Source: a bacterium (GTDB lineage: Bacteria > SAR324 > NAC60-12). Taken from it: a DNA stretch of 64,000 bases. The translations under genes and the position numbers were made by a program. Location of the stretch: NCBI GenBank assembly GCA_965205865.1, contig CBDBHR010000030.1, positions 1,280,001 through 1,344,000 on the forward strand, read 5' to 3'. The notes beneath the pieces are model-generated. The model had not been told where the DNA came from. It did no database searches and saw only the letters and a program-made list of their open reading frames with translations. Positions 47,441-64,000 of this stretch are shown one piece after another (position 1 is the stretch's first letter; each line of letters begins with the position of its first letter).

Positions 47441-47471
47441 AAAGATAATTTTCTGATTAAGGAATGCCCGT

Positions 47472-48566
47472 TTAAATCACCCAATCATGCCAAAGATTGT
47501 CTTTGGTCGGCACTTCGGTGTCCTCTGTGAAGTTGAAGGCGTCGACCCACCACTGATTGGTCTTACCAGGGCCAAACACATCGTCGTCATCGAAGAAACT
47601 TAAATCACCTTTCTGAAAGTCACACGGCACCACCAGGCGAATACGCGGCTTGTCGTCTATGGCGGAAAAATTCATGCCTCCTGAGTGGATCAGTCGCGGA
47701 TGCCAGAAGACCACATCTCCAGGCGCACCGCAAAACTCAACTGGACTGACATTGCTGACAATCCGATCAAATTCATTGAAAAAAACCATCAGTCTGTCCG
47801 TTGCACTAATCTTGGTGCTGTGACAGGTATCCCAAGTGGGATGGAGAAGGATGTGGGATCCCGGCCATACCGTGAAACCTCCGCATCTCGGTGGTATTTC
47901 ATTGATAAGAACCATCGCGGAGAGATAGGCGGGATTGGGGTCCACGTGCGGGCCGAGCCTTTTTGGTTCCTCTTCAGCCAGTGGCGCGACACCATAAATT
48001 CCGCGTACTCTTTGGGTCGGTCTGAGAGGCGTGCCAATAAACTGTGCAACGACTTGCTGGACGTTTGGGTGATTTGTCGTCAAAGCAAGCAGCCAATTTT
48101 CAATACCGAATCGTGTTGGTGAGCGAAACTTAAAAGAATTTCCACCCACTTTACCCAAGCATTGACTATCTTCTGTCGTCAGTTTTTCCCCTCTGTGTGA
48201 CCAAGTCGAGGTCTCATCACGCTGCATGTAATAGTCAGGCACATGCTCCCAAAAATAATCTTCAATTCTTCTCAATCCTTCTTTATCCTTCACAAGGCCA
48301 CGTTTGACAATAAACCCCTGCGACTTGAAATGCTCGATTTCCGCTTTTGATAATTTGACCTGCTCGGCCCCTTCGAGACGGTCTTCATAAGGGATGGGCT
48401 CAAGGGATGTGAGGGGCGCATTCTTATTAATTTTTAGGTTTAAGACTGGGTGAGTTGAAACCCTCCCCTCGTAATCGGCTGGTGGGGGAACGCTTACTTC
48501 TTCTATCACTTTAGCTTGTCCGGATTGGTAATTGATGGGTGGGTAGCAAAATTTAAGGTCTTCCAT
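47472..48566 (-). CDS. Phytanoyl-CoA dioxygenase (PhyH) family protein
   Basis: F...GF, PHVD, GGFTVWPGSH, PGDVVFWH..L.HSG..N...R. Confidence 0.85.
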   Translation of the reverse strand: MEDLKFCYPPINYQSGQAKVIEEVSVPPPADYEGRVSTHPVLNLKINKNAPLTSLEPIPYEDRLEGAEQVKLSKAEIEHFKSQGFIVKRGLVKDKEGLRRIEDYFWEHVPDYYMQRDETSTWSHRGEKLTTEDSQCLGKVGGNSFKFRSPTRFGIENWLLALTTNHPNVQQVVAQFIGTPLRPTQRVRGIYGVAPLAEEEPKRLGPHVDPNPAYLSAMVLINEIPPRCGGFTVWPGSHILLHPTWDTCHSTKISATDRLMVFFNEFDRIVSNVSPVEFCGAPGDVVFWHPRLIHSGGMNFSAIDDKPRIRLVVPCDFQKGDLSFFDDDDVFGPGKTNQWWVDAFNFTEDTEVPTKDNLWHDWVI

Positions 48567-48680
48567 TGAGTTCCTTTTGATGAGGAGATTAATTTTATCT
48601 GATTAAACCACGTCCTTTGAGCGGGGATCCGAATGCGGCCCAGCCTAGTTGTGGTCAGAGACAATCGGCTCTGCCAGAAA

Positions 48681-48850
48681 CGTGCACGTGTTCGTAATCG
48701 TGCTCGTGCACGTGCTCGATTTCAGTGCTCCAGGTTCCCTTGAGATGGGGAATTCATTAGAACAGAATACAAGACATAGAATGAGTTCTTGCTGTATTGG
48801 ATTGTGTTTCGTTCACGAGCACGAGCACGTCTCACGAGTACGATCACGAG
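48681..48850. repeat. Inverted arrays of hexamer repeats (cgtgct / agcacg)
   Basis: 48681-48720 vs 48814-48850. Confidence 0.8.
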
Positions 48851-49022
48851 AAGTCCCTTCCAGGGGCCAATCAAAACCACCTTCTTAGGCGGACGGCCAG
48901 TTGTGGACGGCCAGTCAAGGTGGATTCTTTACTGTCAATAAACAAAAAAAGCAAGGCAATGGGAGAGCCCGATCACCTTGCCTTTTTTAAAATGGCTGAA
49001 CAAATAAAGTATCGAATTACTT

Positions 49023-50825
49023 CTAATGACCCATTTCTTTCTTCATGTCCTGGTAAATCCAGTAACGACTTAAGACATCGAAGGCAGGCCTTCCCTGCAG
49101 GTTAGCTTCTCCATTGGCACCACCGAGCCAGGGCCACCACATCCTGACACTTGTTGGTGTAACACTGGAGATCACCCAGTGGTTCTTCAAGACGTAAAAA
49201 TCCGCTTCACGGGCTAACCTTCGTTGCTCTTCCAGGGTATCTGCCTCCGCTACTCTTGCACACAAGTCATCAAAATGGGCATCGTTGGCCCTCACACTGT
49301 CGGTCGGTGATTTCGAACCAGGACCCGTGAGACAAGCCCAATCAGGGGCATTCCCTCTATATCCTCTCTGTCCCCAGGTGATTTGGCTGGAGCCGTTTTT
49401 CATATTATCGATAAGCTCGTTTTGACTGATGGTCTTGATCTCCAGATCGACCCCCACCTCGGCAAAATAACTTTTAACGATCCTGGCGTAACCGGGGTCC
49501 ATCCCATACCAACCGGGGGCTAATTCGTAAATGGCCTTGAATCTGAAACCGTCTGATCCCACAGGCAGTCCTGCTTCATCGAGGAGTTTCTTTGCCCTTT
49601 CAGGGTTATAGGTATACTCTGCCTTAAGTTCCTCATCAGGCCATTCATCATAAGACTCGATCCATGGTAACCTGTAACCATCATAAATTCCTTTTATTTG
49701 TGTGCTGGCAAACCCTTTGAAATAGCTCTTTGCAATGGTCTCTCGGTCGATAGACATTTGCAGTGCCTTGCGCACCTTTAATTTCTCAAAGGGAGGGACC
49801 TTCTGGTTCATGGCAAGATGCATCCCCTCAGCGCCTAATACATTAAGGTATTTTACTTCAGGGTTTTTCTCGATGATGGCTGGGGCATCTTTAGAAGGAA
49901 TTTCTCGGATCCAATCCAGCTGGCCTGTACGGAACGCGGCCAGTCGGGTCCCGGCGTCTTCAATGATGAGCCCTTTTATTTCATCGGCATAGGGAAGCTT
50001 ATAGCCTGGGAAAACCGGATCCATGGCCCAGTAGTTGGGATTTTTGGCATAAGTGATATGGGAGCCTGAGGCATACTCTTTGATCATGTAAGGACCCGTG
50101 CCGACGACGTGTTCCCAGCTGACAAAATTCCCCCATTGCTCGAGGATCTCGGGTGGGTTGATTTGCGTGCCATGCCATGGCCTCCATACCTGAGTTAAAA
50201 ATGTGGGCATATTTTTAATGAATTTGAACTCAACCGTCCAATCATCAGTAGCGGTGATTGATTTGACCACGGTGCCTTTCCATTCAGGAACGTTGGGGTT
50301 CGGCTCTTGCCCCTCAAATTTCCCGATCCCTAACATCCGTTGAAAACAATACGCAACATCTTTCGCGTTCATCTCCCGGCCACCTACCAGCTTGCCCCCT
50401 GGGGTATCCGGTTCGTGGAAATGGATACCTTTGCGAATTTTTAAGATGTAGGTGAGGCGATCGGGTCGCTCCCAGCTTTCGGCGAGCCAGGGTGTGGTAT
50501 GTTCGAATTCAGTTTCATATAAGGAAAAATCTTGTCCATTCGGATCATATTGTGTCCAATCCGCTACAAACAATTTCTCCAGCAGAATACCCGCACCCCG
50601 GGTTGCTTTATACCCCGAGACATGCGCGTCAAATGAGCCTGGGTCAAAAAGAAAGGGGAAGGTGATTGTCCCCCCATACTGAGGCGGTCTGATCATCTCT
50701 CCGGTTCTCTGGTCTCGGATCAACTGCTCGGCAGACGCGGCCGAACCCGCCATGAAAACTGCCACCCCCATCATGAAGGCCGGCAGGGTTGCACTTAATG
50801 TGAATCTTCTTTTTTGAGTAAACAT
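49023..50825 (-). CDS. ABC transporter substrate-binding protein, family 5
   Basis: Signal peptide MFTQKRR..., LAESWE, VGTGPY, VRKALQMSID; an alternative in-frame ATG lies at 50927. Confidence 0.9.
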   Translation of the reverse strand: MFTQKRRFTLSATLPAFMMGVAVFMAGSAASAEQLIRDQRTGEMIRPPQYGGTITFPFLFDPGSFDAHVSGYKATRGAGILLEKLFVADWTQYDPNGQDFSLYETEFEHTTPWLAESWERPDRLTYILKIRKGIHFHEPDTPGGKLVGGREMNAKDVAYCFQRMLGIGKFEGQEPNPNVPEWKGTVVKSITATDDWTVEFKFIKNMPTFLTQVWRPWHGTQINPPEILEQWGNFVSWEHVVGTGPYMIKEYASGSHITYAKNPNYWAMDPVFPGYKLPYADEIKGLIIEDAGTRLAAFRTGQLDWIREIPSKDAPAIIEKNPEVKYLNVLGAEGMHLAMNQKVPPFEKLKVRKALQMSIDRETIAKSYFKGFASTQIKGIYDGYRLPWIESYDEWPDEELKAEYTYNPERAKKLLDEAGLPVGSDGFRFKAIYELAPGWYGMDPGYARIVKSYFAEVGVDLEIKTISQNELIDNMKNGSSQITWGQRGYRGNAPDWACLTGPGSKSPTDSVRANDAHFDDLCARVAEADTLEEQRRLAREADFYVLKNHWVISSVTPTSVRMWWPWLGGANGEANLQGRPAFDVLSRYWIYQDMKKEMGH

Positions 50826-50956
50826 ATTTTTCCTTTCGCATGTATGTTCAAAATTAAGGATTACTTTAAAACCTGCTTTGATTCCCGAAAGCACGTTCTC
50901 GACGATTTCTCTAATTATAAATTTCATTTAGACCTTTCTTGTTATTTAGTTTGAAG
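50749..50956 (-). promoter_or_regulatory. 208-bp leader + signal-peptide cassette, copy 1
   Basis: Gap-free match to 62281-62488, about 15 mismatches by eye. Confidence 0.85.
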
Positions 50957-51076
50957 CAATAAAAATTCATTTTCTGCTTACGTGATTTCACCATAGGCTT
51001 CTCCTGATAAGATTAATGACTAAAAAAAGGGCGCACTCAGGTGTCCATGATTTTGCAAATTCCCCCTTGCCGATTC

Positions 51077-51335
51077 AGGAACTTGGGATTTGGAACTGGG
51101 AATCTTAAGGATCTCTTCCCCTCGGACTGGGCGTCGCCGTCGAGATGACACCAGGGGATAGAACTTGGGATTGGGAATTTGTTGCTTGGGGCTTGGAACT
51201 GAGAATTTGAGACTAGGAACTTGGAACTAGGTACTTGGTGCCGGGTTGCCGGGTGCCGGGTGCCGGGTGAGTTTGTTGATAATTTCTTCGGCAGTTTTAG
51301 TCCAGACATAGGGGTGCCGGGTGCCGGGTGCCGGA
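51077..51335. repeat. Heptamer tandem arrays (ggaactt-like and gggtgcc)
   Basis: Directly visible 7-bp periodicity. Confidence 0.8.
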
Positions 51336-51379
51336 TTGTACTCTCATTTTAACCTCTTGTCAAGTTATTTTTATTTTAT

Positions 51380-51608
51380 ATTTGAAACGGGTTAATTTCA
51401 GACTTTCATGTCCTCCTGATGGTACGACCGCAAAGTGAAGGATCGCATGATTGCCCTTTTGTCCCTGGAAGAAACTATTGCATAGTCGCTTTGCAACTGA
51501 AAGCTGACCGCAGAAAGCGAAAAGCCGTTTCTCGATAGCGACTATTTAGAGGAGAATATTTTATATCCATTTGAAACGGGTTAATTTCAGACTTTCATGT
51601 CCTCCTGA
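51380..51608. repeat. 40-bp direct repeat (51380-51419, 51569-51608)
   Basis: atttgaaacgggttaatttcagactttcatgtcctcctga x2. Confidence 0.85.
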
Positions 51609-51713
51609 AAACATAATATTTTTTAGGATCTTGAAAAAGCGTTATTGGAAAAACAATCGGCAGGCCTTCTTTAGGAAATTGCTTCAGGTATTGCTCATAA
51701 ATCCCCACTAAAT

Positions 51714-51865
51714 ATACGATGTGCTCTGGCCATTTTGTTGATTTCTTTAAAAGGTGCTTTTGACCCACAAAAAGAAGGTTCTAAGAGCCAATATTCGCTT
51801 ATATTTTTTAAAATATATAATCATAACAATGGAGTAAATAAAATAATTTGGTGCGACCCGATTTC
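51714..51865 (-). mobile_element. RAYT family A upstream end with the first codons of the transposase
   Basis: Near-identical to 54173-54328; MARAHRI start; ends aaataatttggtgcgacccgatttc. Confidence 0.85.
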
Positions 51866-51988
51866 CAAGTGACCTTGAGGTCGTTCTATTTTCATCTATA
51901 TATCTTGGCGTTTTCATAATTTTAGGTTAATTTACATGAGTAATGGAAATCAATAATAACTAAGTGAAGTAGATAAGGTAATAGGAAC

Positions 51989-52387
51989 GTGGCAGAGCAA
52001 TCATGGATATATGAGTCTGGTTCTCAACGATTTAAGCATAAATGGCATCATGATTACGCAGATATTACCAGAGATTCTAAACAAAATAGAATTATTGGAA
52101 AATGTCCAAATACTTTGATCCAAAGTATTGCTGAGAAACTTCTGAATGAGGGATTTCATTATTCTCCTGAAAGCTGGGAGGAAGAGTATCCTAAAGAAAT
52201 TTTTAATATTTATGAAGGCATTCCATATAGAGCGGTTATAACTCTTCCAGGAAAATCATATCATGGATTCCCTACAAGTTATATTCCGCCCATATTGGAA
52301 ACAAATTTGGCAGATAGAGCAAAAGAGGAAGGAACATTTGAGGAATATAAGAAATGGAAAAAACAGAAAAAACACTTAAGAAATTAG
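51989..52387 (+). CDS. Hypothetical protein, putative toxin-like RNase
   Basis: 132 aa; KHK...GKCP and YRAV...YHGFP motifs; GTG start with AGG RBS; AT-rich. Confidence 0.6.
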   Translation: MAEQSWIYESGSQRFKHKWHHDYADITRDSKQNRIIGKCPNTLIQSIAEKLLNEGFHYSPESWEEEYPKEIFNIYEGIPYRAVITLPGKSYHGFPTSYIPPILETNLADRAKEEGTFEEYKKWKKQKKHLRN

Positions 52388-53835
52388 GAAAAATAGGAAA
52401 TCCAAGTGGAATATGTTTCCAAATTCTATGGCAACAAACACTGAAAAGAGATTTAAATGTCATAGATGCTACTGAAGGAGAAATAAAACTATGGTTGAAA
52501 AATGAATTGATTTGGGGGGAAAACATAGATGAAATAGAAAGAGGAAATGGTGGCGATTGGATAGAATTACTAGAGTTTTTATGTCTAAATTGGCATTATA
52601 TTTGTCATGAAGAGAATCACATTCTTTTTTATCAAGCTACCAAAAGTAAATTTTTGAAGGCAATAGAGGGAAGATATTTTTACTTAGGAGAATCTGAAAA
52701 TAGTAGAGAGCTTCAATCAATCTATGATTTTATCGAAAGGCATGACTTAGCTAGATGTGTTAAAGGAGAGTATATTCAACCGATTATGCTTATGCGTGAA
52801 GGTAATCAAATGCTGATTGCTACTGAAGATGGTGTCATTTCACGTCCTTTAGATGAAGTTATAGACACCTTGCAAAATATAGGAGATTTTATCTCTAAAC
52901 GAATTGAAAGCCTAAAAGATGAAAGTGCTAAGTATTGGTGTGATCGTTGGATAAATAAAGATCATAGTTTTAGTCTAGAAAAGAAATTACCGTTAGTAAC
53001 CAACCTTTCAATAATCACAATCAATGATCTGCAAGAAAATAGTTCTGTGCGTGAATTTTGGGAGCTACAGGAAGATATTAGTGCTTCTTCAGAAATTCTA
53101 GCAGTTGCACGAATGAGTAGGGAAGTTCCCAACCAATTTATTTCAATAATTATAGAAAAAGTGCGTTCTGCACAAAAAATTCAGACATCTTCATTAGATG
53201 CAATTTCAAATGAGGCAATTAACTTCATAAGTAGTAATAAATTTATCCCTCTATATAAGCAGGGCTATATTCTTGCCAAGTGGTTACGAGAAAAACTTGA
53301 GGTTAAAAGTAGTGAAAAGATTTTTCCAAGAGAAATAATAGAAGAATGGGGTGTCACTATAGAAGAAATTGATTTGGATGGATGCCAATCCTTACAAGCT
53401 GTTTCATGCTGGGGACCTCAACATGGTCCTACTATTTTTCTGAATATGAAGGGGAAGTATAACAAAAGCATTTCTGGACAAAGAGCTACATTAGCTCATG
53501 AAATTTGTCATTTGCTTTTGGATAGGAATACATCTTTACCCTTAGTTGAAGTATTAGGAGGAGATACTCCATATGGTGTTGAGAAAAGAGCTAATGCTTT
53601 TGCAGCAGAATTACTACTCCCAAGAATAGAAGTAGAAAAATTTATGGAGACAGATAGTGAGATAGAAAAAGTTGCTAGCTCCCTATCTACAAAATTTTCA
53701 GTAGGATATATCCTAATAGCAAACCAGATACTAAACTCTCCTCAAATTTCTTTAGAGAGATCTGAACAAATATATATAAAAAATATTCAAAATCAATATA
53801 TTGCCTCCCCACTTTTTGATTTGTCTTTGTTCTAA
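52354..53835 (+). CDS. ImmA/IrrE-family Zn metallopeptidase with long uncharacterised N-terminus
   Basis: R.TLAHEICHLLLD and EKRANAFAAELLLP. Confidence 0.88.
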   Translation: MEKTEKTLKKLGKIGNPSGICFQILWQQTLKRDLNVIDATEGEIKLWLKNELIWGENIDEIERGNGGDWIELLEFLCLNWHYICHEENHILFYQATKSKFLKAIEGRYFYLGESENSRELQSIYDFIERHDLARCVKGEYIQPIMLMREGNQMLIATEDGVISRPLDEVIDTLQNIGDFISKRIESLKDESAKYWCDRWINKDHSFSLEKKLPLVTNLSIITINDLQENSSVREFWELQEDISASSEILAVARMSREVPNQFISIIIEKVRSAQKIQTSSLDAISNEAINFISSNKFIPLYKQGYILAKWLREKLEVKSSEKIFPREIIEEWGVTIEEIDLDGCQSLQAVSCWGPQHGPTIFLNMKGKYNKSISGQRATLAHEICHLLLDRNTSLPLVEVLGGDTPYGVEKRANAFAAELLLPRIEVEKFMETDSEIEKVASSLSTKFSVGYILIANQILNSPQISLERSEQIYIKNIQNQYIASPLFDLSLF

Positions 53836-53890
53836 AACAGATCAGTTAAAACAATACCTTCGCCAAAATAGATTTTGGTCGTTTTTGTCG

Positions 53891-53956
53891 CACGCTGAGC
53901 GAAGTCGAAACGTATGATTTCAGTGACTTAAAAAACCCTTCGACTTCGCTCAGGGT
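53891..53956. repeat. REP-like inverted repeat pair
   Basis: ctgagcgaagtcgaa ... ttcgacttcgctcag. Confidence 0.75.
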
Positions 53957-54010
53957 TCTATTTTTTAAATTGGCGAAGGTATTGTTAAAAAAATAGAACA
54001 ATAGTAAGAA

Positions 54011-54327
54011 AAATCGGGTCGCACCAAATTATTTTCCGGATCTTTCAACCGATAGCGTTTCTTCGCTTCGAACAGCCAATGACACCAAGTCTGTTTGTCT
54101 TTAGCAAACTTCAGTAAGAACGCTCGTTTGTGGCAACGATGGGTCAAATGCCAAACATAACCGGGAAGGAAGATACGATGTGCTCTGGCCATTTTGTTGG
54201 TTGATTTCTTTAAAAGGTGCTTTTGACCCACAAAAAGAAGGCTCTAAGAGCCAATATTCGCTTATATTTTTTAAAATATATAATCATAACAATGGAGTAA
54301 AGAAAATAATTTGGTGCGACCCGATTT
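54011..54327 (-). mobile_element. 317-bp RAYT family A miniature element with perfect 26-bp TIRs
   Basis: aaatcgggtcgcaccaaattattttc and its complement; encodes MARAHRIFLPGYVWHLTHRCH... truncated. Confidence 0.88.
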
Positions 54328-54330
54328 CAG

Positions 54331-54887
54331 TAGTTCGGGCGATTTGCCACCGATAACCGGGAAAAACAAGGTCTGGGAAAACCGGAAAGTTTCGACTTTT
54401 TAGGATTTACTCATGTCTGTGACACTCGGATAAAGGATGGAAAATTCAAGCTCACCCGTCTCACTATTTCCAAAAGGTTGCGAAAGAAGCTCAAAGAGAT
54501 CAAACTTGAAGCGAAACGCAAACGTCATGAAAATGCGCATGAACAAGGAAAATGGCTCAGGTCTGTTTTAAATGGTCTGTACAACTACTATGGAGTCCCC
54601 GGCAACAGGAGTTCCTTGAATGCTTTTCGCACGGAAATCCATCGGATGTGGTTCAAATCACTAAGACGGAGGAGTCACAAAGCAAAGAGGATGAACTGGG
54701 AACGCTTCAAAGTACTGATCAAACTACACATTCCTTCTGTAAGGATAACCCACCCGTATCCGAATCAACGTTTGAGCGTCTGACTCGAAGCAGGAGCCGG
54801 ATGCGTTAGCAGCGCACGTCCGGATCTGTACCGGAGGAATGATGAATGGTGACTGAAAGTCACTATAAATCAGTTCTTTACGGTGAC
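54331..54887 (+). mobile_element. Group II intron 3' half: RT domain 7/maturase X fragment plus ribozyme DV-DVI
   Basis: FGRFA...FDFLGFTH, L.G.YNYYGVPGN, HPYP; DV gagccggatgcgttagcagcgcacgtccggatct; DVI ending ...cggtgac. Confidence 0.9.
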
Positions 54888-55200
54888 TATTTTTTGGTAT
54901 TTGGACGTCCTTGACCCCGGCATTCCACTCTCACGTCTATTTATTTTCGACTTGATCGACAAACCGCACGGTCCCTGTCAACTGCCCTCGTTGAAGAGCC
55001 TGAGGGATTTGTGTCAGATCTTTTTGCTTCTCGGATTGTTGAACAAATTGCCGATACCTTCGTTGCCGAGTTGGTAATGTTTTTCCTAAACTTTTGGAAA
55101 ATGGATCCGGATCAATGAGTTTTTTTTTCACTAACCCGATTTTCTCCTGAAAACTGGACCATTCATATTCTTCAGGAAAAAGAACCATTTTCGCCCGAAC
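54888..55200 (-). pseudogene. RAYT family B C-terminal fragment
   Basis: VRAKMVLFPEEYEWSS...RGQLTG; homologous to 42111-42337. Confidence 0.82.
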
Positions 55201-55225
55201 AGTAAAGAAAGGAGGGGTCAGTAAA

Positions 55226-55323
55226 GGGGTCAAGTCTTGATTTTTGAAAAAGATTAATGTCAAAGGAGGGCTCAAGTCTTGACTTTTGAAAAAGATTAAT
55301 GTCAAAAGTCAAGACTTGACCCC
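55226..55323. repeat. GGGGTCAAGTCTTGA...TCAAGACTTGACCCC palindromic unit with internal tandem duplication
   Basis: Directly visible IR and a ~42-bp duplicated subunit. Confidence 0.75.
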
Positions 55324-55424
55324 GTTTCGAAGAGGAAAACGAGAAGGTTCAGCGGAATGATTTGGTAGAAATTCAGGAGAATTTCTATATTGGGAAAGCA
55401 TCACATAGATCGAAAAGTAAGACA

Positions 55425-55540
55425 ATGAGCAAACAACTATCTACCAACCAAGAGTATCAACAATGGCTGAAAAAAATTAAGACCAAAGTTCACAATAGCC
55501 AAATCAAAGCAGTCGTTTTAGTAAACCAAGAACTTGATAG
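55425..55540 (+). pseudogene. DUF1016/YhcG N-terminal stub
   Basis: EYQQWLKKIKTKVHNSQIKAVVLVNQEL. Confidence 0.7.
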
Positions 55541-55570
55541 CAAAACGTTTAGGTTTGGTGAATGGCGTGA

Positions 55571-55908
55571 TTGGGGTCGGACCAGATTATTTTCTGTCTT
55601 GGCGTTGAGAGGGTTGATACCATGCTTTTCGGATGAGCGTTTCATGATTTTGTCGAAATTCCTCCAAAGCCCCAGTTTGTTTGTCTTTGGCAAACTTGAG
55701 TAAAAAGGTGCACTGGTGGCAGCGATGGGTCCCATGCCAGAGAGAGCCAGGAAGGAATAGACGGTTTGCTCTCGCCATTTTATCAATTTTCTTAAACGCT
55801 CCTTTTGCACCTCAAAAAGTGAAGGCTAAGCGCCATTTTTAGCTTATTGTTTTGAAAATATCTATGGAGAACAATGCTATAGAAAAAATAATCCGGTGCG
55901 ACCCGATT
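55571..55908 (-). mobile_element. RAYT family A miniature element (internal deletion) with imperfect TIRs
   Basis: ggggtcggaccagattatttt ... aaaataatccggtgcgacccg; MARANRLFLPG..THRCH..KDKQT|LEEFRQNHE. Confidence 0.85.
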
Positions 55909-56136
55909 ACATACTCGACCTGTGACACGCGCGAACGTATCTGCCGCATAACCCGCACTACGTTCATCGCGCATCAACACGTGTTGGATTCGCCCCTTGT
56001 ATTTGCTGATACCCTCGTATAAAGGCAGAGTTTGGCCGCCTGGCACACCGAACACATACTCAACACCATTTTCTACCAGTAGTTCAGCCAGCCTCTCCCC
56101 AACTCGTTTTCCTTTTTTACTCAACATTTCATCCAT
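55909..56136 (-). pseudogene. ThDP-binding enzyme N-terminal fragment, truncated at the RAYT end
   Basis: GVEYVFGVPGGQTL, RDERSAGYAAD..ARVTG. Confidence 0.85.
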
Positions 56137-56230
56137 TTCTGTTTTTCGTTAAAGTTTGATCAAAAATCCCTTTTCCTCGTACTGCCTTTGAAATAAGGCG
56201 GGAGCGCAGTGCTCCATAATCCGGTTTTAC

Positions 56231-56390
56231 CTAATCCCATGTTTCTCGAAACTGTATTGCCTTCTCCGGATCAAAATCGTCCGGGCGCTGAACTATTTCC
56301 ATAATAATGCCTCCGGTCTTATCAGTACCCAAATAGGCCATTCCTCCGCCACCGACAAATCTGTCTTCCTGAAGAACATCGATCCCCGCT
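56231..56390 (-). pseudogene. VOC/glyoxalase-like C-terminal fragment
   Basis: GIDVLQE.RFVGGGGMAYLGTDKTGGIIMEIVQ. Confidence 0.6.
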
Positions 56391-56411
56391 TATCGCTGAC
56401 GGACTACACGC

Positions 56412-57404
56412 TCAGGAATACAGGTGACAGACGACCTTGTGTCCCGGAGTAGGCTCGATCATCTGAGGATCGAGGACGCTACAAGGTTTGAAAACCGCCG
56501 GACAGCGGGGATGGAAGTGGCAGCCCGGAGGCGGGTTATCCGGCGATGGCACCTCGCCCGTCAGAATGATCTCCTCCCTTTCGATATCCGGGTGCGACGG
56601 TAGCGCCGCCGACATTAGGGCGCGGGTATACGGGTGCAGGGGGTTCTCAAAAAGTTCCTCCGTGTCCGCCTCCTCGACTAGGCGGCCCAGATACATGACC
56701 CCTATCCTGTCGCACATGTACCGCACGGTGGCCAGGTTGTGGGCTATGAGCAGGTAGCTGAGGTCATATTCCTCTTGCAGGTCTTTCAAGAGGTTCATTA
56801 TCTGTGCGCGGATGGAGACATCCAGCCCCGAGACCGGCTCATCTAGCACAACGACCTTAGGATTGAGGGCCAGCGCCCTCGCCATTGCGATCCTCTGGCG
56901 TTGACCGCCGCTGAACTCGTGAGGATAGAAATTTGCATGGTAGGCCTGGAGGCCGACCTCTTCCAGCACCTCACTCACCCTTCCATGGATCTTCTCCTTG
57001 GTCATCGTGGTGTTAATCTCCAATGGCTCGCCGATGATGTCTCTCACCCGCATACGGGGATTCAGCGAGGCCCACGGGTCCTGGAATACGGCCTGTACCG
57101 ATGATTTGTACAGCCTGGTCCCCTCCCGGTCCAGATTCAACGCATCAAGTTCTTCGAACTGGATGCCTCCGTCCGTCGGTTCCTCCAGGAGGAGTACCAT
57201 CTTTGCCGTGGTGGTCTTGCCGCATCCCGACTCGCCTACGAGCCCGTATGTCTCGCCCTCCCGGATGATGAACGAGACACCGTCCACTGCCCTGAGGAAG
57301 GCCCGGCTGCGTTTGATGAACCCACCGGTGACTGGGAAGTGCTTCTTCAGGTTACTCACCTGAAGAAGGTTCGATCCGTTTTCATTCCTGCCGTTGTCGG
57401 ACAT
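56412..57404 (-). CDS. Oligopeptide/dipeptide ABC ATPase (OppF/DppF-like)
   Basis: GESGCGKT, FSGGQRQR, HPYT, GCHFHPRC. Confidence 0.93.
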   Translation of the reverse strand: MSDNGRNENGSNLLQVSNLKKHFPVTGGFIKRSRAFLRAVDGVSFIIREGETYGLVGESGCGKTTTAKMVLLLEEPTDGGIQFEELDALNLDREGTRLYKSSVQAVFQDPWASLNPRMRVRDIIGEPLEINTTMTKEKIHGRVSEVLEEVGLQAYHANFYPHEFSGGQRQRIAMARALALNPKVVVLDEPVSGLDVSIRAQIMNLLKDLQEEYDLSYLLIAHNLATVRYMCDRIGVMYLGRLVEEADTEELFENPLHPYTRALMSAALPSHPDIEREEIILTGEVPSPDNPPPGCHFHPRCPAVFKPCSVLDPQMIEPTPGHKVVCHLYS

Positions 57405-57407
57405 AGC

Positions 57408-58397
57408 TTAGCTCTCTCGTAGCCAGCAGGCAGCCACGTGCCTGTCTCCGACTGTCACAAGAGGAGGGTACTCCTCGTGACAGGGCTCATGTACATAAGG
57501 ACATCGAGGTGCGAAGGAGCACCCACCGGGCAGGTCCCACAGGGCTGGAGGCTGACCTTCTATGGCGTAAAGTCGCTCGACTTTCTCTTCGAGCTTAGGG
57601 ACCGAGTTGATCAGAGCCTCCGTGTATGGATGTGACGGGCTGTCGAAGATCTGCCGTACGTCCCCTTGCTCCACGATTCGCCCCGCATACATCACTGCCA
57701 CCCGGTCGCACATCTTGGCCACGATCCCAAAGTCATGGGTGATGAACACTAACGCAGTGCCCGTCTGCTGCTGGAGGTCTTTCAGCAACCGGAGATATTG
57801 GGCCTGGATCGTGGCGTCGAGAGATGTGGTGGGCTCGTCGGCTATCAGGACCAACGGATCGCAAGAGATGCCTATGGCCCCTACAACCCGTTGCCTCATG
57901 CCCCCGCTTAGCTGGTGCGGATAGTCCCGCATGCGAATCTCCGGTGCGGGTATCCTTACCCTGCGCAGCATCTCTACGACCTGATCCTTCAGATCCCGAG
58001 CCCGTAGCCCTTTGTGTATCCTCATCGCTTCGCCGGTCTGGTTTTCGATATCGAACACCGGATTCAGGGCCGTCATGGGGTCCTGGAGGATCATGGCGAT
58101 CTTGTCGCCACGTATCCGTGCCATCTTGCTTTCGTCGGCCTGGAGAATGTCTTCCCCTTCCAGTAAAACCCGCCCACCGACGATCCGTCCCGGTGGCGAC
58201 GGTACGAGCTGCATGATGGACAGCGCTGTAACCGACTTACCACAGCCCGACTCGCCGACAAGCCCCAGCGTCTCACCGGCGTGGACCTGGAAGCTGACGC
58301 CGTCAACCGCCTTGACATGGCCCCACCTTGTGATGAAATGGGTGCGTAGCTCCTCGACCTCGAGAACCACCAGCTCGTTTCCGTGTCCTCCTACCAT
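57408..58397 (-). CDS. Oligopeptide/dipeptide ABC ATPase (OppD/DppD-like)
   Basis: GESGCGKS, LSGGMRQR, GCSFAPRC. Confidence 0.93.
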   Translation of the reverse strand: MVGGHGNELVVLEVEELRTHFITRWGHVKAVDGVSFQVHAGETLGLVGESGCGKSVTALSIMQLVPSPPGRIVGGRVLLEGEDILQADESKMARIRGDKIAMILQDPMTALNPVFDIENQTGEAMRIHKGLRARDLKDQVVEMLRRVRIPAPEIRMRDYPHQLSGGMRQRVVGAIGISCDPLVLIADEPTTSLDATIQAQYLRLLKDLQQQTGTALVFITHDFGIVAKMCDRVAVMYAGRIVEQGDVRQIFDSPSHPYTEALINSVPKLEEKVERLYAIEGQPPALWDLPGGCSFAPRCPYVHEPCHEEYPPLVTVGDRHVAACWLRES

Positions 58398-58617
58398 GTC
58401 TCGAATACTCTCCTCCCAGGTTGTAAGTTCTCAATAAATCCGAGTACTGATAAAAAATTGTAATGGACAAACCTAAAAACTAAAGATTTGTGTTAATGAA
58501 TCCAATAAGAAGTATCATGGCTTGAAAACATTCCCCTTGTGTCCATGAGTATGTCCAAGATGAAACGTTCAAAAATAAAGATACCAGATATAATCGAAAC
58601 CTTCATTCACCCATAGA

Positions 58618-59535
58618 TCATAGCTGTCTTAGCCGGGGGTCCAGCTTGTCCCTCAGCCAATCTCCAAGGAAGTTGAAGGCAAACACAGTCAGAAATATGG
58701 CCGCTCCCGGGAAGAAGGCGATCCACCAGGCGCTCCCCAGATAGGAGCGCCCATCCGACACCATGGACCCCCAGGCGGGGGTAGGAGGTGGGATGCCAGC
58801 CCCAAGATAAGAGAGTATCGCTTCGGTGAGGATAATGCTCCCGACCTGAAGAGTGGCTATCACCATGACGGTATTAAGGACGCCCGGAAAGAGATTTCTA
58901 ACAAAGATCCTTAACACCGAAGCGCCTGCAACTCTCGCCAGAGCCACATAGTCTTCATTCTTGAGTTGAAGGGTTTCACCTCGTACCTGACGGGCAAAAG
59001 TGCTCCAGGAATTGACCGCGAGGATTCCCACAAGAATGGCAAAGCTCTGTCCCACGACCACCACGATAACCAGCGCTATCAATATCAACGGTATAGCCAA
59101 CTTCACGTCTATGACGCGCATTATCAGTTCATCCGTCCAGCCGCCGAAGTAGCCGGAGATCATCCCGAGGATAATGCCAACAATACCGCCAATGCCCAAA
59201 GCGACTGCCGACACAATCAAGGATATTCTGGCTCCAAAGATCACGCGGCTAAGTATGTCGCGTCCCTGGTGGTCGGTGCCAAGAAGGAATTCGCTGGTAC
59301 CATCCCTGTACCATACAGGCGGGGTATTGCGGACCGCCAAGGAGGCAGCTTCCGGATCGTGAGGTGCGATAAGCGGTGCGAACACGCCGCAAACTACAAG
59401 AAGCGCCAGGATAGCGACTGAAACTACGGGCAATCGGCGCATGAAGTTGTAGCCCTTGTCAAACAAAGCTCCCATTCCGCCCGCAATTTTCTGAGTATTT
59501 TGCCTCGCCCATCCTGTCTCCCGGGTCTCGTTCAT
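58618..59535 (-). CDS. ABC permease (OppC/DppC-like)
   Basis: LGTDHQGRD, EAILSYLG, GDWLRDKLDPR. Confidence 0.92.
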   Translation of the reverse strand: MNETRETGWARQNTQKIAGGMGALFDKGYNFMRRLPVVSVAILALLVVCGVFAPLIAPHDPEAASLAVRNTPPVWYRDGTSEFLLGTDHQGRDILSRVIFGARISLIVSAVALGIGGIVGIILGMISGYFGGWTDELIMRVIDVKLAIPLILIALVIVVVVGQSFAILVGILAVNSWSTFARQVRGETLQLKNEDYVALARVAGASVLRIFVRNLFPGVLNTVMVIATLQVGSIILTEAILSYLGAGIPPPTPAWGSMVSDGRSYLGSAWWIAFFPGAAIFLTVFAFNFLGDWLRDKLDPRLRQL

Positions 59536-59698
59536 ATTTGTTACCTCTACATTTCATTAAGCCAATGGCGCAATCCCTCGTCAGATGTCCAAGATCAAAC
59601 TCCACCCCTCCAAGCATCCGGGACGGGGACGAAGGCTGACCGGGCGTGGCAATTGTCTGACAGCCTGCATGCTGTAACCTTTGCCGCAATTCCTCGAT

Positions 59699-60616
59699 CT
59701 AGCTGTATCGGATCCTCGGGTCTATGAAGACATAAGCCACATCCACCACAAAATTAAGACTTACGTACCCGAAGGTAATCACGAGGATAGTGCCGGCAAG
59801 AAGCGGGAAATCGTTTTGGTAAACGGCCTCAATGGCCAGACTTCCCAATCCAGGCCAGGCAAAAACTGTTTCAGTCACCACTGCGCCGGCCACCCAGCTT
59901 GCCAGAACTACTCCAGCATAGGTAAGTGGAGGTATGGTCGCGTTCTTCATGGCATGTTTCCAGATCACCGCAACCCTACCTACGCCCTTAGACCTGGCGA
60001 ACTTGATGTATTCCGAGTCCAAGGTGTTGAGCATTGCTGAACGTACGAGACGCAGCTGCCCGGCGGCTGCCAGCCAACCAAGGGTTACGGCGGGCAGTAT
60101 CAAATGCTCCAGCCCACCCCGTCGCCCAGCGGGTAACCACTCAAGCTGGACCGCAAAGACGAGCATCAGCATGATACCCAGCCAAAACGGTGGCAGTGCT
60201 TGGCCAATGAGCGCAAACGTGCGCCCGGACAAGTCCCAAAAGGTGCCTCTCTTTACAGCGGAGAGTACCCCCAAAGGCCACCCCACCACGAGGGCGAATA
60301 TCCAAGCTGCCAGCGCCAATTCGAGGCTGGCTGGAATACGCTCGGCCACAGCTGTCGTCACGGGACGCTGCTCGCGAAGGGAGGTGCCCAAATCCCCCTG
60401 GACCGTTTTGCCAAGCCAAACGAGATACTGCACCAGCAGGGGCCTGTCCAGTCCCATCTCAAGCCCCCACTCGTCCCACTGCTCTTGTGTGGTGTACTCG
60501 TTGAGGTAAAGGAGGCGCGGGTCCCCCTGAAGGCGGGACATGACAAACACCAGGCTGGTCACCACCAACATGGTCAACAGCATGAGGATAAACCGTCTCA
60601 CCAGGAACTGTCGCAT
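59699..60616 (-). CDS. ABC permease (OppB/DppB-like)
   Basis: GDLGTSL, RLVRSAML..L..EYIKFARSKG. Confidence 0.92.
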   Translation of the reverse strand: MRQFLVRRFILMLLTMLVVTSLVFVMSRLQGDPRLLYLNEYTTQEQWDEWGLEMGLDRPLLVQYLVWLGKTVQGDLGTSLREQRPVTTAVAERIPASLELALAAWIFALVVGWPLGVLSAVKRGTFWDLSGRTFALIGQALPPFWLGIMLMLVFAVQLEWLPAGRRGGLEHLILPAVTLGWLAAAGQLRLVRSAMLNTLDSEYIKFARSKGVGRVAVIWKHAMKNATIPPLTYAGVVLASWVAGAVVTETVFAWPGLGSLAIEAVYQNDFPLLAGTILVITFGYVSLNFVVDVAYVFIDPRIRYS

Positions 60617-60689
60617 CTTGTCTCACCTTTTGTGTAAAGCGCGAACTCGATGTCTTCACGATTGTACGAAATTTCCCCTCAGGCTCACT

Positions 60690-62357
60690 CTATGGGCCGG
60701 GGACGATATACTCCAGTCTCGACGGGTATAGCGAATTATGGAGGGGCATATCCCACTCCTTCACCTTGGGTCCTGCCGCCCAGGGGGTCCACCAGCTAAC
60801 TGTTGGAATGGCAACCATTTCGTGTTGGGCCCACTGCAAGAACTCGACGGCCACTGCCCAGGCTTCTTTATCATCGACCTTAGAGACACCTCTTCTAAAG
60901 AATTCCCGAGCTTTCGGGTATTCGATGCCCGGATTCCAGACGCCCATATCGGTGATCCCCTGCATGTCGAAAACCGCGTCTGGTGCCGTGTCGGCGCCCG
61001 TTCCCCAGGGCCCCATCCACATGTCCTTGATGGTACGGGAGACCATAGTCGGCCTGCGAGCTGAGTAGGCCGCCTTCTCTACCTTCGGTCGGAGGCCGAC
61101 AGCCTGGAACATGCCTATCAGCGCTTCCGCCACTGCTGCCCGCTCCGTACCGAACTGCGTAGGGATGAAGTAGGTGAAGTCAAACCCATTGGGGTACCCG
61201 GCTTCAGTTAAGTACTGCTTTGCCTTCTCAACATCGTAGGGGAAGTCCCAGCTCTTCTGATAGCTAGGGTGGCAATCGGTAATGAAAACTACGTGTTGAA
61301 CACAGCCTTGACCCGCCAATATTGCCTTATTGATTAACTCGCGGTCGATGGCCATGGCCATGGCCCACCGCACCTTGCGGGCTGCTTCCATGGAGTCGGG
61401 ATCATTAGGATCGCCTATCCAGGGCAACGTGGTGTCCAACGCGCGATCTACGGGAGTTCCGTCTTCCTTGGTCTTGGCGTAATACTGACCCGCAGGGGTG
61501 AGGACAGCACTTTCCTTACCTCGCGTTCTGCCTTTCCACAGCTTGACCCCCTCAATATCCACATATTGGTCAATGACCGGCAAGCTCGCAGCAGAAATGT
61601 CGGCTTTACCGGTTTTTAGCATGGCGATCCGCGTGGCCTCCTCCGGAACGTCCAATACCATGACAGTGGCGAAGGCCGGGGTTTGGCGCCAATGGTCGGG
61701 CACGGCCTCCAGCCGGATGAAATCATCGGCCTTGTGCTCTGCCACTTTAAAGGGACCGGTGCCCACGGCGTTGAGAGTCTGCCAATTTTGACCTTTCTCG
61801 TCGAAGGCTCGCTTGCTGGTGATAAACGCCGTGTGACCACCGTACCGGGAATTGATAGACCATCGGACCGTAGGGACGGCCAACTCCATGCGCACGGTCT
61901 CTGCGTCCAGGGCCTCTATTTTGGTATAGTCGGTCTTGATGGTTCCACCTGCAGGATTCACCGTGCCTTTTGCCATGGTCTCTTGGTAACTGAAGACTAT
62001 GTCGTACGCCGTCAGTTTGCCCCAGCCATCATGGAAAGACACGTCCTTCCTAATCTTGTAGGTGACAGCTTTAGGCGTTATCTCCCACGAATCGGCAAGC
62101 ATGGGCAACAAATTAACGCCATCGAAGTCCATCAGGGTTTCGAAGGTACCCAGTGCTTCGTTACGAACGTTATAGGGATATGACGCATTTTTCAGATTGT
62201 ACTGAGGTGGTCCCACATCGGCGAGGGCCACCACCAGTTCACCCTGGGGCTTCACCGGCTCAGCTGCCCAGACCTGGCTAGCCATGAAAACTGCCACGCC
62301 CATCATGAAGGCCAGCAGGGTTACGCTCAATTTTGAGCTTCTTTTTTGATTAAACAT
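60690..62357 (-). CDS. ABC transporter substrate-binding protein, family 5
   Basis: Signal peptide MFNQKRS..., LADSWE, VGTGPF, VRWAMAMAIDR; an alternative in-frame ATG lies at 62459. Confidence 0.9.
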   Translation of the reverse strand: MFNQKRSSKLSVTLLAFMMGVAVFMASQVWAAEPVKPQGELVVALADVGPPQYNLKNASYPYNVRNEALGTFETLMDFDGVNLLPMLADSWEITPKAVTYKIRKDVSFHDGWGKLTAYDIVFSYQETMAKGTVNPAGGTIKTDYTKIEALDAETVRMELAVPTVRWSINSRYGGHTAFITSKRAFDEKGQNWQTLNAVGTGPFKVAEHKADDFIRLEAVPDHWRQTPAFATVMVLDVPEEATRIAMLKTGKADISAASLPVIDQYVDIEGVKLWKGRTRGKESAVLTPAGQYYAKTKEDGTPVDRALDTTLPWIGDPNDPDSMEAARKVRWAMAMAIDRELINKAILAGQGCVQHVVFITDCHPSYQKSWDFPYDVEKAKQYLTEAGYPNGFDFTYFIPTQFGTERAAVAEALIGMFQAVGLRPKVEKAAYSARRPTMVSRTIKDMWMGPWGTGADTAPDAVFDMQGITDMGVWNPGIEYPKAREFFRRGVSKVDDKEAWAVAVEFLQWAQHEMVAIPTVSWWTPWAAGPKVKEWDMPLHNSLYPSRLEYIVPGP

Positions 62358-62488
62358 CTTTTTCCTTTCGCATGGATGTTCAAAATTAAGGATTGCTTTA
62401 AAACCTGCTTTGATTCCCGAAAGCACGTTCTCGACGATTTCTCTAATTATAAATTTCATTTTGACCTTTATTGTTATTTAGTTTGAAG
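62281..62488 (-). promoter_or_regulatory. 208-bp leader + signal-peptide cassette, copy 2
   Basis: Gap-free match to 50749-50956. Confidence 0.85.
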
Positions 62489-62519
62489 GTAACTATTCAG
62501 GTCTCTGAAAAACCCGTTT

Positions 62520-63105
62520 AGTTATATATCGTTTAAAAAAGATTCCCGAGAAGGATCCGTCACTTCACTTCCTCCCGCACCTATTTTGAATCGAACGGGC
62601 GGGAACCCAAGATTTTGTTCAATCGATCGATCGGGGACCCTCATTTTTCACTAAAACAACTCAGTGAAGGCACGATCCTAGCACAACAACAACAACGCAA
62701 TGTCAACCCCCTGCTGTAAAATAAATGCGGGATTCGCAAAAAAAATAAAAAATCTATAAATCAGGGAGATCCGCTCCTTTATGATATGGATAAAGCAAAA
62801 GGAGCTATTGGGGAACAAATACGGAAGATTAAAAAATTTCCTTTAGGAACAAACCTTAAATAACCTGTAATTATTCCAATGGTGTGAGCAAAATTGGGGG
62901 ACATGTACAGCGCAGCAAGTCAGGATCAGGAAAATTGCGCAACAATGGTGATCAGCTATAAAAAAATATTTAGCGGTCCATCTTCGGCATGAGCCAAAAA
63001 GCGGATGTTCGCTCCACAATCCAGCGTTTTTTCCAACGGTGATAATGATCGTAAACGCTTTGCCAGGAAGGTAAATCATGGGCAAGCATGCTCCACTGAC
63101 AACCC
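62520..63105 (-). repeat. Repeat family F inverted copy (deleted IS5 + non-coding tail)
   Basis: Reverse complement matches ~24952-25590 and 30123-30568. Confidence 0.8.
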
Positions 63106-63159
63106 AGAACAGAAAGGATTATTTGAAAGAATTAGAAGAAGAGGAAAAGAAATAAGTAG

Positions 63160-63714
63160 TCATAGCGGTGGGCCGAAATATCGGTGACTCCATCGCAGAT
63201 ATTTGCGATACTCTTCTCCAAATTGAGCCTCAAGATAGTGCTCTTCTACTTTGATATAGCTGCTAAACCGAATCCAGAATAAGGCTGTCAGGAGCATTGC
63301 AAATCCGGATTTTCCCACAATGGAAATCCCCAACAAACACAACATCCAGCCGACATTCTGAGGATTTCGACTCCAACTGTATATTCCATTCGTAACTAAA
63401 TGATCGTTCACTCTCCCATTTATACGCTGCAATGATCCGAAGGCGATGATCCCTGCAACAAGTAAGCACATACCACCCACTATCAACAAAATCCCGGTCC
63501 AAAAGCTCATCCAATCGTTTATGGGCAATGCCCATATTCCCGAAAAAGCGGCAACTGAGGTAAGGGAAAAATGTCCGAGATACACGAGCCATACAATGGT
63601 GACAGTGAACATTGATAACCCCGCTTGTTTTCCATATTCTTGACGGACTCGTCTTCTGCACCAAAAAACGAGAAATCCAACGAACCCCAGTCCAATTAAC
63701 AACCAAAAAATCAT
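63160..63714 (-). CDS. Isoprenylcysteine carboxyl methyltransferase/PEMT family membrane protein
   Basis: LVTNGIYSWSRNP, EEHYLE.QFGEEY..Y. Confidence 0.88.
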   Translation of the reverse strand: MIFWLLIGLGFVGFLVFWCRRRVRQEYGKQAGLSMFTVTIVWLVYLGHFSLTSVAAFSGIWALPINDWMSFWTGILLIVGGMCLLVAGIIAFGSLQRINGRVNDHLVTNGIYSWSRNPQNVGWMLCLLGISIVGKSGFAMLLTALFWIRFSSYIKVEEHYLEAQFGEEYRKYLRWSHRYFGPPL

Positions 63715-64000
63715 GATGACTCTGATCTTCTAACGAGGTTATAGAATAAGCCCGAGAGTTCTAAAAAAGATCGAATTCTAGGTACCTACAACCCTCCTTG
63801 ATTCAAAATCCTTGCTCTATAAGCAAATTCGGAGTTTGGTTTTTACCGATAATCTCTCACTTTGACTTAGAACTTATCCTTAAATAACATTAACTTTCCT
63901 GTAAGTTATGATAGCTGCAGCCAATTGAAGCAGTGCGAGATAAGTTTGATTATATTTTTCGAATCGGACCATTATCTTGCGAAATCTGTTGAACCATGAA

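Follow-up and report, generated by a model that had tools for sequence, protein, structure and literature searches.

In a 64,000-nucleotide stretch of the genome of a SAR324 bacterium (contig CBDBHR010000030.1 of assembly GCA_965205865.1, positions 1,280,001 to 1,344,000; hereafter the window), two genes for divergent family-5 substrate-binding proteins (SBP5), called A and B here, begin with the same 208-base tract. This match is probably a gene-conversion tract within a family of exchanged, genus-restricted 5' cassettes whose start units are likely translated. The two copies, 50749-50956 in A and 62281-62488 in B, aligned without gaps in MAFFT and BLAST, with 193 of 208 bases identical (92.8%, 15 mismatches). 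The match is far beyond chance (E = 1.9e-84 against the 4.74-Mb genome). The mature parts of A and B share 22% of their residues, and their DNA is 36.8% identical (26.9% at third codon positions). An earlier reading made from the letters of the window (the sequence-only reading) had described a gapless match with about 15 mismatches in front of two divergent binding proteins, and this description was borne out; the mature domains are not recent paralogues at the DNA level.

On the coding strand the tract consists of 29 bases, a first ATG from which 102 bases (34 codons) lead to a second in-frame ATG, and 26 signal-peptide codons, the last of which ends the tract at ..GVAVFMA. The ATG pair lies at 50927 and 50825 in A and at 62459 and 62357 in B, and the second ATG is preceded by AAAGGAAAAA. 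The sequence-only reading had given the tract this same extent, from an AT-rich 5' region over two in-frame ATGs to ..GVAVFMA. Its AT-rich region is present, but taking it simply for an untranslated region does not hold, as most of it is an open frame that is continuous with the gene and has its own start. The cassette can be described as one in-frame 34-codon unit with a putative ribosome-binding site and ATG of its own, followed by the n- and h-regions of a predicted Sec-type signal peptide. Both proteins matched Pfam SBP_bac_5 (PF00496; 230.5 bits for A and 202.2 bits for B, cut-off 32.4), and both open reading frames (ORFs) scored below every NCBIfam equivalog cut-off. Cleavage sites were placed by eye at ..GSAASA/EQ in A and ..SQVWA/AE in B. 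Neither signal peptide contains a cysteine, and so neither A nor B has a lipobox (L-x-x-C closing the h-region). In A, the signal peptide contains KRRFTL (50800-50812, minus strand), which resembles a twin-arginine motif. Because B and the A orthologue P0195 have KRSSKL at this place, KRRFTL looks like a recent change rather than a twin-arginine translocation signal.

The direction of the conversion was read from orthologues. The closest cassette to that of B is that of A (93%), and the next best reaches at most 86% (BLAST). B and its orthologue P0001, from another assembly, are identical at 508 of 524 mature residues and at only 45 of 62 residues of the leader and signal peptide, and the front end of P0001 is of the main type (..LLALILGASVFMAGQVWA). 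P0195 retains the MKFII.. and ..LLAFMMGVAVFMAGSAASAEQLIRD of A. Since the 97% orthologue of B has another cassette variant and the orthologue of A keeps the A cassette, we infer that the cassette of A overwrote that of B. Downstream of ..FMA, B returns to the main-type SQVWAAE common to many copies. These data are most simply read as conversion of B by A-type sequence, from the upstream junction as far as ..FMA, after the lineage of B had split from that of P0001; the front-end cassette of A would thereby have replaced the matching part of a gene 11.5 kb away. The sequence-only reading had taken the A-B identity as the mark of two grafts, and P0001 and P0195 point instead to a recent conversion of B by the cassette of A. 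A metagenome scan for DNA of the B orthologue returned only a 33% relative.

The pair belongs to a large family. Using BLAST and an iterated nhmmer profile, we found 65 units at 45 loci in the genome, one to three per gene front end; the two-copy cassette of the sequence-only reading was a real pair drawn from this family. SBP5 homology follows the unit directly at 44 of the 45 loci (two of the 44 are remnants, scoring 21 and 33 bits), and the remaining locus shows only a signal-peptide remnant; the cassette was not found independently of binding-protein genes. Unit and gene (or, once, the signal-peptide remnant) have the same orientation at all 45 loci. The 23-base hairpin core of the unit occurs 59 times in the genome when up to 4 mismatches are allowed, and 59 of these 59 occurrences fall inside units. 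The SBP5 complement comprises about 150 ORFs or fragments, next to at least 150 matches to the BPD_transp_1 permease family, and 32 of its 105 full-length genes carry units, single in 14 and double in 18. A second genome of the same genus (G001, one 4.3-Mb contig; the present genome is G000) gave 116 matches to protein A. The unit consensus is M-(C/G, or NRQKS, or KxII)-REIVENVLSG-x-KAGFK-..-ER-(KK/ST), over 34-36 codons, and the unit ends in a ribosome-binding-site-like motif plus ATG that reads in frame as ERKKM, ERSTM, NGESRM or NEGDPM. Neither Pfam nor NCBIfam has a family for it. SBP genes that lack the REIVENVLSG unit have other tandem in-frame units, such as ..KKLVASxxGLNPAGxWSAAK..LKEVTM, ..FTSEKGEIM.. 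and ..FNSIVFGKEIIMKKIK, which likewise finish with a ribosome-site-like motif and ATG (for example at C25:258930(+), C30:333316(-) and C30:1067084(-)). The first of these types is GC-rich and palindromic.

Cassette DNA was found in 3 of 88 genomes of the phylum, namely the present genome, G001 (at least 31 matches) and G023, which carries another genus label and 5% contamination and has its cassette matches at contig ends. Over 185,579 species genomes the unit pattern gave 25 loci, located on the G001 record, the G023 record and one contig binned as Dehalococcoidia, apart from one chance-level match. The Dehalococcoidia-binned contig (L079, 3.4 kb) contains a typical cassette plus a main-family gene and is probably mis-binned. 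The cassettes on L079 and on the G023 contig ends are of high identity, and cassettes under other taxonomic labels are likely the result of mis-binning or of breaks at repeats. The unit profile gave 72 matches among 1.84 billion representative proteins; of 16 examined, 15 consist of one to three units, a signal peptide and an SBP5 domain, and one is spurious. We concluded that the cassette family is restricted to one genus and stands only before genes for family-5 binding proteins of ATP-binding cassette (ABC) transporters.

Cassette and mature body have separate histories. Median pairwise DNA identity among 33 unit-bearing genes fell from 86.7% in the unit core to 73.1% in the signal peptide and 59.8% in the mature part, with 52.6% at mature third codon positions; this gradient implies old bodies and front ends that are young or homogenised. 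On a tree of the mature domains (105 genes, FastTree), unit presence required 26 changes, compared with a mean of 27.6 after shuffling. From the ..LTLMV codons of the h-region onward, the paralogues C24_178057 and C29_620419 show about 97% identity; upstream of these codons they are unrelated. In six G001-G000 gene pairs with at least 90% identity, the cassette is kept in four, differs in type in one and differs in unit number in one. Vertical inheritance with each gene, under stronger purifying selection on the cassette and with no recombination, would agree with the confinement of all carriers to one protein family. It is contradicted by the random scatter on the tree, by near-identical paralogues with swapped leaders and by the different cassette variant of P0001, and we regard it as highly improbable. 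The proposal of the sequence-only reading that leader and signal peptide move as a module independently of the mature domain agrees with the tree, the swapped leaders and the orthologue pairs. The exchange itself is observed; the sequence comparisons indicate that recombination moves cassettes among more than 100 paralogues, with breaks often falling inside the conserved signal-peptide coding sequence.

Spread of the cassette by transposition in a mobile element, an IS66 tail or a miniature inverted-repeat transposable element (MITE), in place of homologous exchange, has to be weighed against the DNA further upstream. The 600-700 bases or so before A and before B are a mosaic of repeats with 20-100 copies each. 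Both modules in front of B have counterparts, arranged in the same order, in the DNA that lies 200-620 bases downstream of transposase genes of the IS66 family. The one at 62510-62770 is found near all nine full-length IS66-family copies and the one at 62850-63105 near four, and several IS66-family elements directly precede binding-protein genes. Against this route, the modules upstream of A gave 0 matches to IS66-downstream DNA, the unit always stands in one orientation and in frame, and the breakpoints lie inside signal-peptide coding sequence. The unit also does not look like a MITE or insertion-sequence fragment in having one orientation and one gene family at 45 loci (terminal repeats were not searched for). 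Transposition is therefore an improbable vehicle, and we retain homologous exchange. In the IS66-tail module of B, a promoter-like sequence at 62675-62706 (minus strand) has a 20-base spacer with a TGT repeat and the -10 element TAGGAT; two other copies of this module have a 16-base spacer and TATAAT. A strict promoter regular expression matched only three copies of the IS66-tail module, and promoter prediction on the B module returned no site. Between the promoter-like site of A and its cassette (51075-51335, minus strand), GGCACCC heptamer runs and CCAAGTTCC-like short repeats lie inside multi-copy modules.

The sequence-only reading had further supposed that a host-type export module was placed on acquired transporter operons, replacing a lipoprotein leader. 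This fits B. The GC content of operon B is 0.48-0.60 in 600-base windows, mostly 0.53-0.60, compared with a genome average of 0.48; the two windows at and upstream of the B cassette have 0.45 and 0.39. The mature part of B had no match at E 1e-30 or better in the 87 other genomes of the phylum, G001 included, and its best relatives elsewhere reach 40-56% identity. Among the 16 non-self sequences retrieved, 14 have, as judged by eye, a cysteine lipobox followed by long Pro/Thr/Ala or VVETV-type linkers; a strict regular expression found a lipobox in 43 of the 120 best matches. Only one of these 120, P0001, carries the unit. The relatives of B named by organism are Chloroflexota, plus one weak Bradyrhizobium match near the bottom of the list, and the two named relatives of a B-operon permease are from Chloroflexota and Dehalococcoidia. 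The joint of cassette and B lies directly after the cleavage motif (..VWA/AE-PVKPQGELVVA), where the folded domain of the relatives begins (..AEPKGTLVIAVEDVGP). Composition, relatives and absence from the phylum support the view that B was acquired from another phylum and given a host-type cassette. To A the supposition may or may not apply: the GC content of A is native-like (0.48-0.50), and its next relative beyond close strains (P0196, 43%) was read by eye as a lipoprotein with a repeat linker.

Next, we examined whether the unit is translated. Of 61 near-complete units (copies that are related, which makes the frame counts non-independent), 52 remain open through 36 codons in the gene frame, as against 21 and 0 in the other two frames. 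The unit head is an in-frame ATG in 56 of the 61 and CTG or TTG in 5, and unit linkers of 12, 13 and 14 codons all keep the frame. In the 300 bases before the h-region at 103 loci, ATGs with a Shine-Dalgarno (SD) match of at least 5 bases numbered 175 in frame versus 15 and 19 out of frame. With a match of at least 4 bases, two or more in-frame ATGs precede the h-region in 79 of 105 genes, and in 24 of the 105 the nearest SD-matched in-frame ATG is at least 23 amino acids upstream. In gene C29_606295 of the present genome the unit runs straight into the signal peptide, with no proximal ATG remaining; P0217 shows the same fusion over the 120 residues read. Among 57 distinct single-base variants in the 16 core codons of the unit, none creates a stop, though 7 of 144 possible changes would (P ~0.03 over related copies). 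Codon-position entropy, synonymous share and BLOSUM scores detected no selection on the unit peptide. Because stops are depleted and protein-level selection is not seen, selection appears to act on the frame, start and ribosome site of the unit and not on its peptide. It is most likely that the units are translated, whether as an extension of the N-terminus or from alternative starts in frame. The selection pattern agrees with a translated extension that is afterwards cut off together with the signal peptide, and also with duplications that are tolerated and have active starts. The G000-G001 orthologue pair L048/L049, about 96-97% identical in 60-base windows over cassette and gene, is too close for a ratio of nonsynonymous to synonymous rates. 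AlphaFold2 without an alignment predicted helices for both units at a mean pLDDT of 54, which is not trustworthy. Two binding-protein genes, C10:3212(+) and C30:72457(+), with SBP5 scores of 470 and 834, are frameshifted; comparison with intact copies places the frameshift of both within the run of A bases in the n-region of the signal peptide, where ..NQKSKS.. becomes ..NQKANQPS.. and a stop, and they are either pseudogenes or slippage-prone sites.

The lack of peptide selection is also what one would expect if the units were functionless by-products of unequal crossing-over, tolerated where in frame because out-of-frame upstream starts are harmful. Unit number varies between orthologues, and broken units accompany intact genes, as this explanation would have it. 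Some genes, on the other hand, have no start but that of the unit, at least four unrelated unit types share the same design, and active upstream starts would be implied even so; we consider functionless units rather unlikely.

Regulation by the unit as RNA or DNA was considered as well. Each unit contains an 8-pair palindrome (TGCTTTCG GGAA CGAAAGCA). CsrA-regulated leaders carry a GGA motif in a hairpin loop and a second one at the ribosome site; the unit has GGA in the hairpin loop (GGAA) and at its ribosome site, and the genome contains one CsrA gene. From these motifs it is conceivable that the unit RNA is a CsrA target, and equally conceivable that the palindrome is an operator. In either case the units would be an untranslated 5' leader kept alike as a regulatory element; a common repressor at the operator would co-regulate the binding-protein genes. 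In keeping with such a leader, conservation is at the nucleotide rather than the codon level, and palindrome pairs are standard in 81-100% over 54 distinct copies. On the unit, contigs of two RNA libraries accumulate to summed depths of 1701 and 864, versus about 9 on the body of A, and those of a DNA run to 306 versus 9.2; contig depth on the unit sums over paralogues, and contigs give no transcript start, end or strand. An untranslated leader leaves the open frame, the near-universal ATG and the frame-keeping 12-, 13- and 14-codon linkers unexplained, and SD-matched ATGs are 9-12 times commoner in frame. Two-sided changes of palindrome pairs occur in only 2 copies, no Rfam match was obtained on either cassette at E up to 1 within 48000-64000, and the other unit types share the in-frame starts but not the hairpin. 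We thus judge a purely regulatory leader more doubtful than functionless units, though a regulatory role may exist alongside translation.

Our tentative proposal, which we hold as possible but less than probable, is that the cassettes are exchangeable front ends of tandem in-frame start units whose products are erased by signal peptidase, that adding or swapping units tunes the strength and perhaps the control of translation starts while the mature protein stays the same, and that the cassettes convert lipoprotein-type binding proteins of monoderm co-residents into periplasmic ones. Our main reading goes less far and is probable: recombination exchanges cassettes among the paralogues, often with a break inside the signal-peptide coding sequence. 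The cassette would thereby equip any binding-protein body with a start of native type for translation and with a signal peptide for signal peptidase I; the recipient may be horizontally acquired, as B with its lipoprotein relatives seems to be. The units would be translated, as an extension or from alternative starts, and removed by signal peptidase, and therefore only the open frame, start and ribosome site would be under selection. Several points weigh against this main reading. In the unit core 14 of the 57 variants are synonymous, the same share as by chance, and replacements are no more conservative than random by BLOSUM scores. Nine of the 61 units are broken in frame with genes intact, so the unit is dispensable, and the relatedness of the copies bears on every frame count. 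Translation from the upstream ATGs is likely on the evidence of sequence. The tree of mature domains comes from FastTree only, with A and B on long branches; the donor phylum of B is suggested by few named matches; and A may, by its GC content and P0196, be foreign or native.

A common 5' region and signal peptide on otherwise unrelated paralogues is already known from passages on other bacteria. In the vpma genes of Mycoplasma agalactiae and the vsp genes of M. bovis, the 5' untranslated region and signal-peptide coding region are described as conserved while the mature parts share little or nothing (PMC2268961). The likeness lies in a family-wide conserved 5' region and signal peptide over dissimilar mature parts. 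The vpma and vsp products, as presented there, are clustered phase-variable surface antigens with lipoprotein signals and a site-specific recombinase, whereas the genes described here have a cysteine-less Sec signal, dispersed metabolic ABC binding proteins and tandem in-frame start units. No sign of an invertase system was seen here, and no search aimed at one was made. Paralogues related to OspE/OspF (Erp) of Borrelia burgdorferi have similar promoter sequences, the upstream homology box (UHB; PMC7002432). These are plasmid- or prophage-borne lipoproteins for host interaction, exported paralogues with a common upstream region as here; the UHB passages describe neither tandem in-frame units nor a graft onto a foreign transporter. 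With leader and signal peptide more alike than the mature parts, and with incongruent histories, the present genes qualify as 5' cassettes of the vsp/vpma and UHB type. In the lpl cluster of Staphylococcus aureus, recombination at a conserved stretch inside the ORF is reported to shuffle 5' and 3' parts, so that the evolutionary unit is not the ORF (Tsuru and Kobayashi, 2008; PMC2568036). The lpl genes, as described, form a single tandem cluster and are conserved in a central region; the present loci are dispersed, and their conserved site of recombination is the signal peptide. Autotransporters can have a conserved extension in front of a normal signal peptide, the extended signal peptide region (ESPR). 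The ESPR profile did not match the unit at E up to 10 (Pfam), and the same search gave only chance-level matches to Jiraiya, DUF3267 and PRMT5_C; the cargo differs too, and the extension here is repeated and has its own starts. Long signal sequences as such are known from autotransporters (PMC2805444). The likeness to insertion sequences with outward-facing promoters is limited to the IS66-family tail upstream of B, that is, to the promoter region further upstream and not to the 208-base tract, and does not extend to A. Literature listings gave no report of tandem in-frame starts combined with a signal peptide, or of such a design in SAR324 binding proteins. What differs from the known cases is the metabolic ABC cargo, the extent (several cassette types over more than 100 genes), the in-frame start units in tandem and the graft onto a horizontally acquired lipoprotein-type gene.

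The mapped breakpoints show how a bacterium with more than 100 paralogous importers may maintain uniform signals for expression and export while the bodies that bind the ligands diverge or are gained horizontally, and they suggest a concrete route by which binding proteins could move between cells of monoderm and diderm plan. Annotation of this gene family has to reckon with ambiguous start codons, as 79 of the 105 genes have at least two starts in frame. Should the tandem starts be in use, they would be a little-described way to raise or tune the translation of exported proteins, and the cassette could serve as a portable expression-export module. The features are listed in Table 1.

Table 1. 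Coordinates in the window of the shared tracts, their parts and the associated genes and repeats.
Feature	Position	Strand	Remark
Copy A of the shared 208-base tract	50749..50956	-	92.8% gapless identity to 62281-62488
Unit A, 34 codons, MKFIIREIVENVLSGIKAGFKVILNFEHTCERKN	50826..50927	-	Has its own ATG (50927), preceded by AAAGG; same frame as the ATG of the signal peptide
Signal peptide A, MFTQKRRFTLSATLPAFMMGVAVFMAGSAASA, no Cys	50730..50825	-	Cleavage after ASA, placed by eye
Hairpin-forming palindrome inside unit A (TGCTTT..AAAGCA)	50874..50893	-	
Binding protein A, SBP_bac_5, longest ORF 634 aa	49023..50927	-	Pfam
Promoter-like site upstream of A, TTGACA-17-TACAAT, 11/12	51335..51363	-	Inside a repeat module of ~43 copies
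Copy B of the shared 208-base tract	62281..62488	-	MAFFT, BLAST
Unit B, 34 codons, MKFIIREIVENVLSGIKAGFKAILNFEHPCERKK, own ATG at 62459	62358..62459	-	
Signal peptide B, MFNQKRSSKLSVTLLAFMMGVAVFMASQVWA	62265..62357	-	Part after FMA of main-family type, unlike A
Hairpin-forming palindrome inside unit B	62406..62425	-	
Binding protein B, SBP_bac_5, longest ORF 589 aa, mature part from AEPVKPQ	60690..62459	-	
Rest of operon B: permeases 59699-60616 and 58618-59535, ATPases 57408-58397 and 56412-57404	56412..60616	-	
Repeat modules before B, present in 22 and 81 copies of half length or more	62510..63105	-	Homologous to DNA just downstream of IS66-family transposase genes

Other features were noted in the neighbourhood of A. 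Downstream of it (46499-48566, minus strand) are a PhyH-like dioxygenase gene (47472-48566) and a permease match (46499-47098), and further downstream the GC content climbs to 0.53-0.62. A low-GC island at 51600-54200 (0.32-0.37) contains a 493-amino-acid ORF (52354-53835, plus strand) with an IrrE/M78 peptidase domain. At 54792-54887 (plus strand) Rfam gave a sub-threshold match to a group II intron (31.6 bits against a cut-off of 40, E = 0.006).

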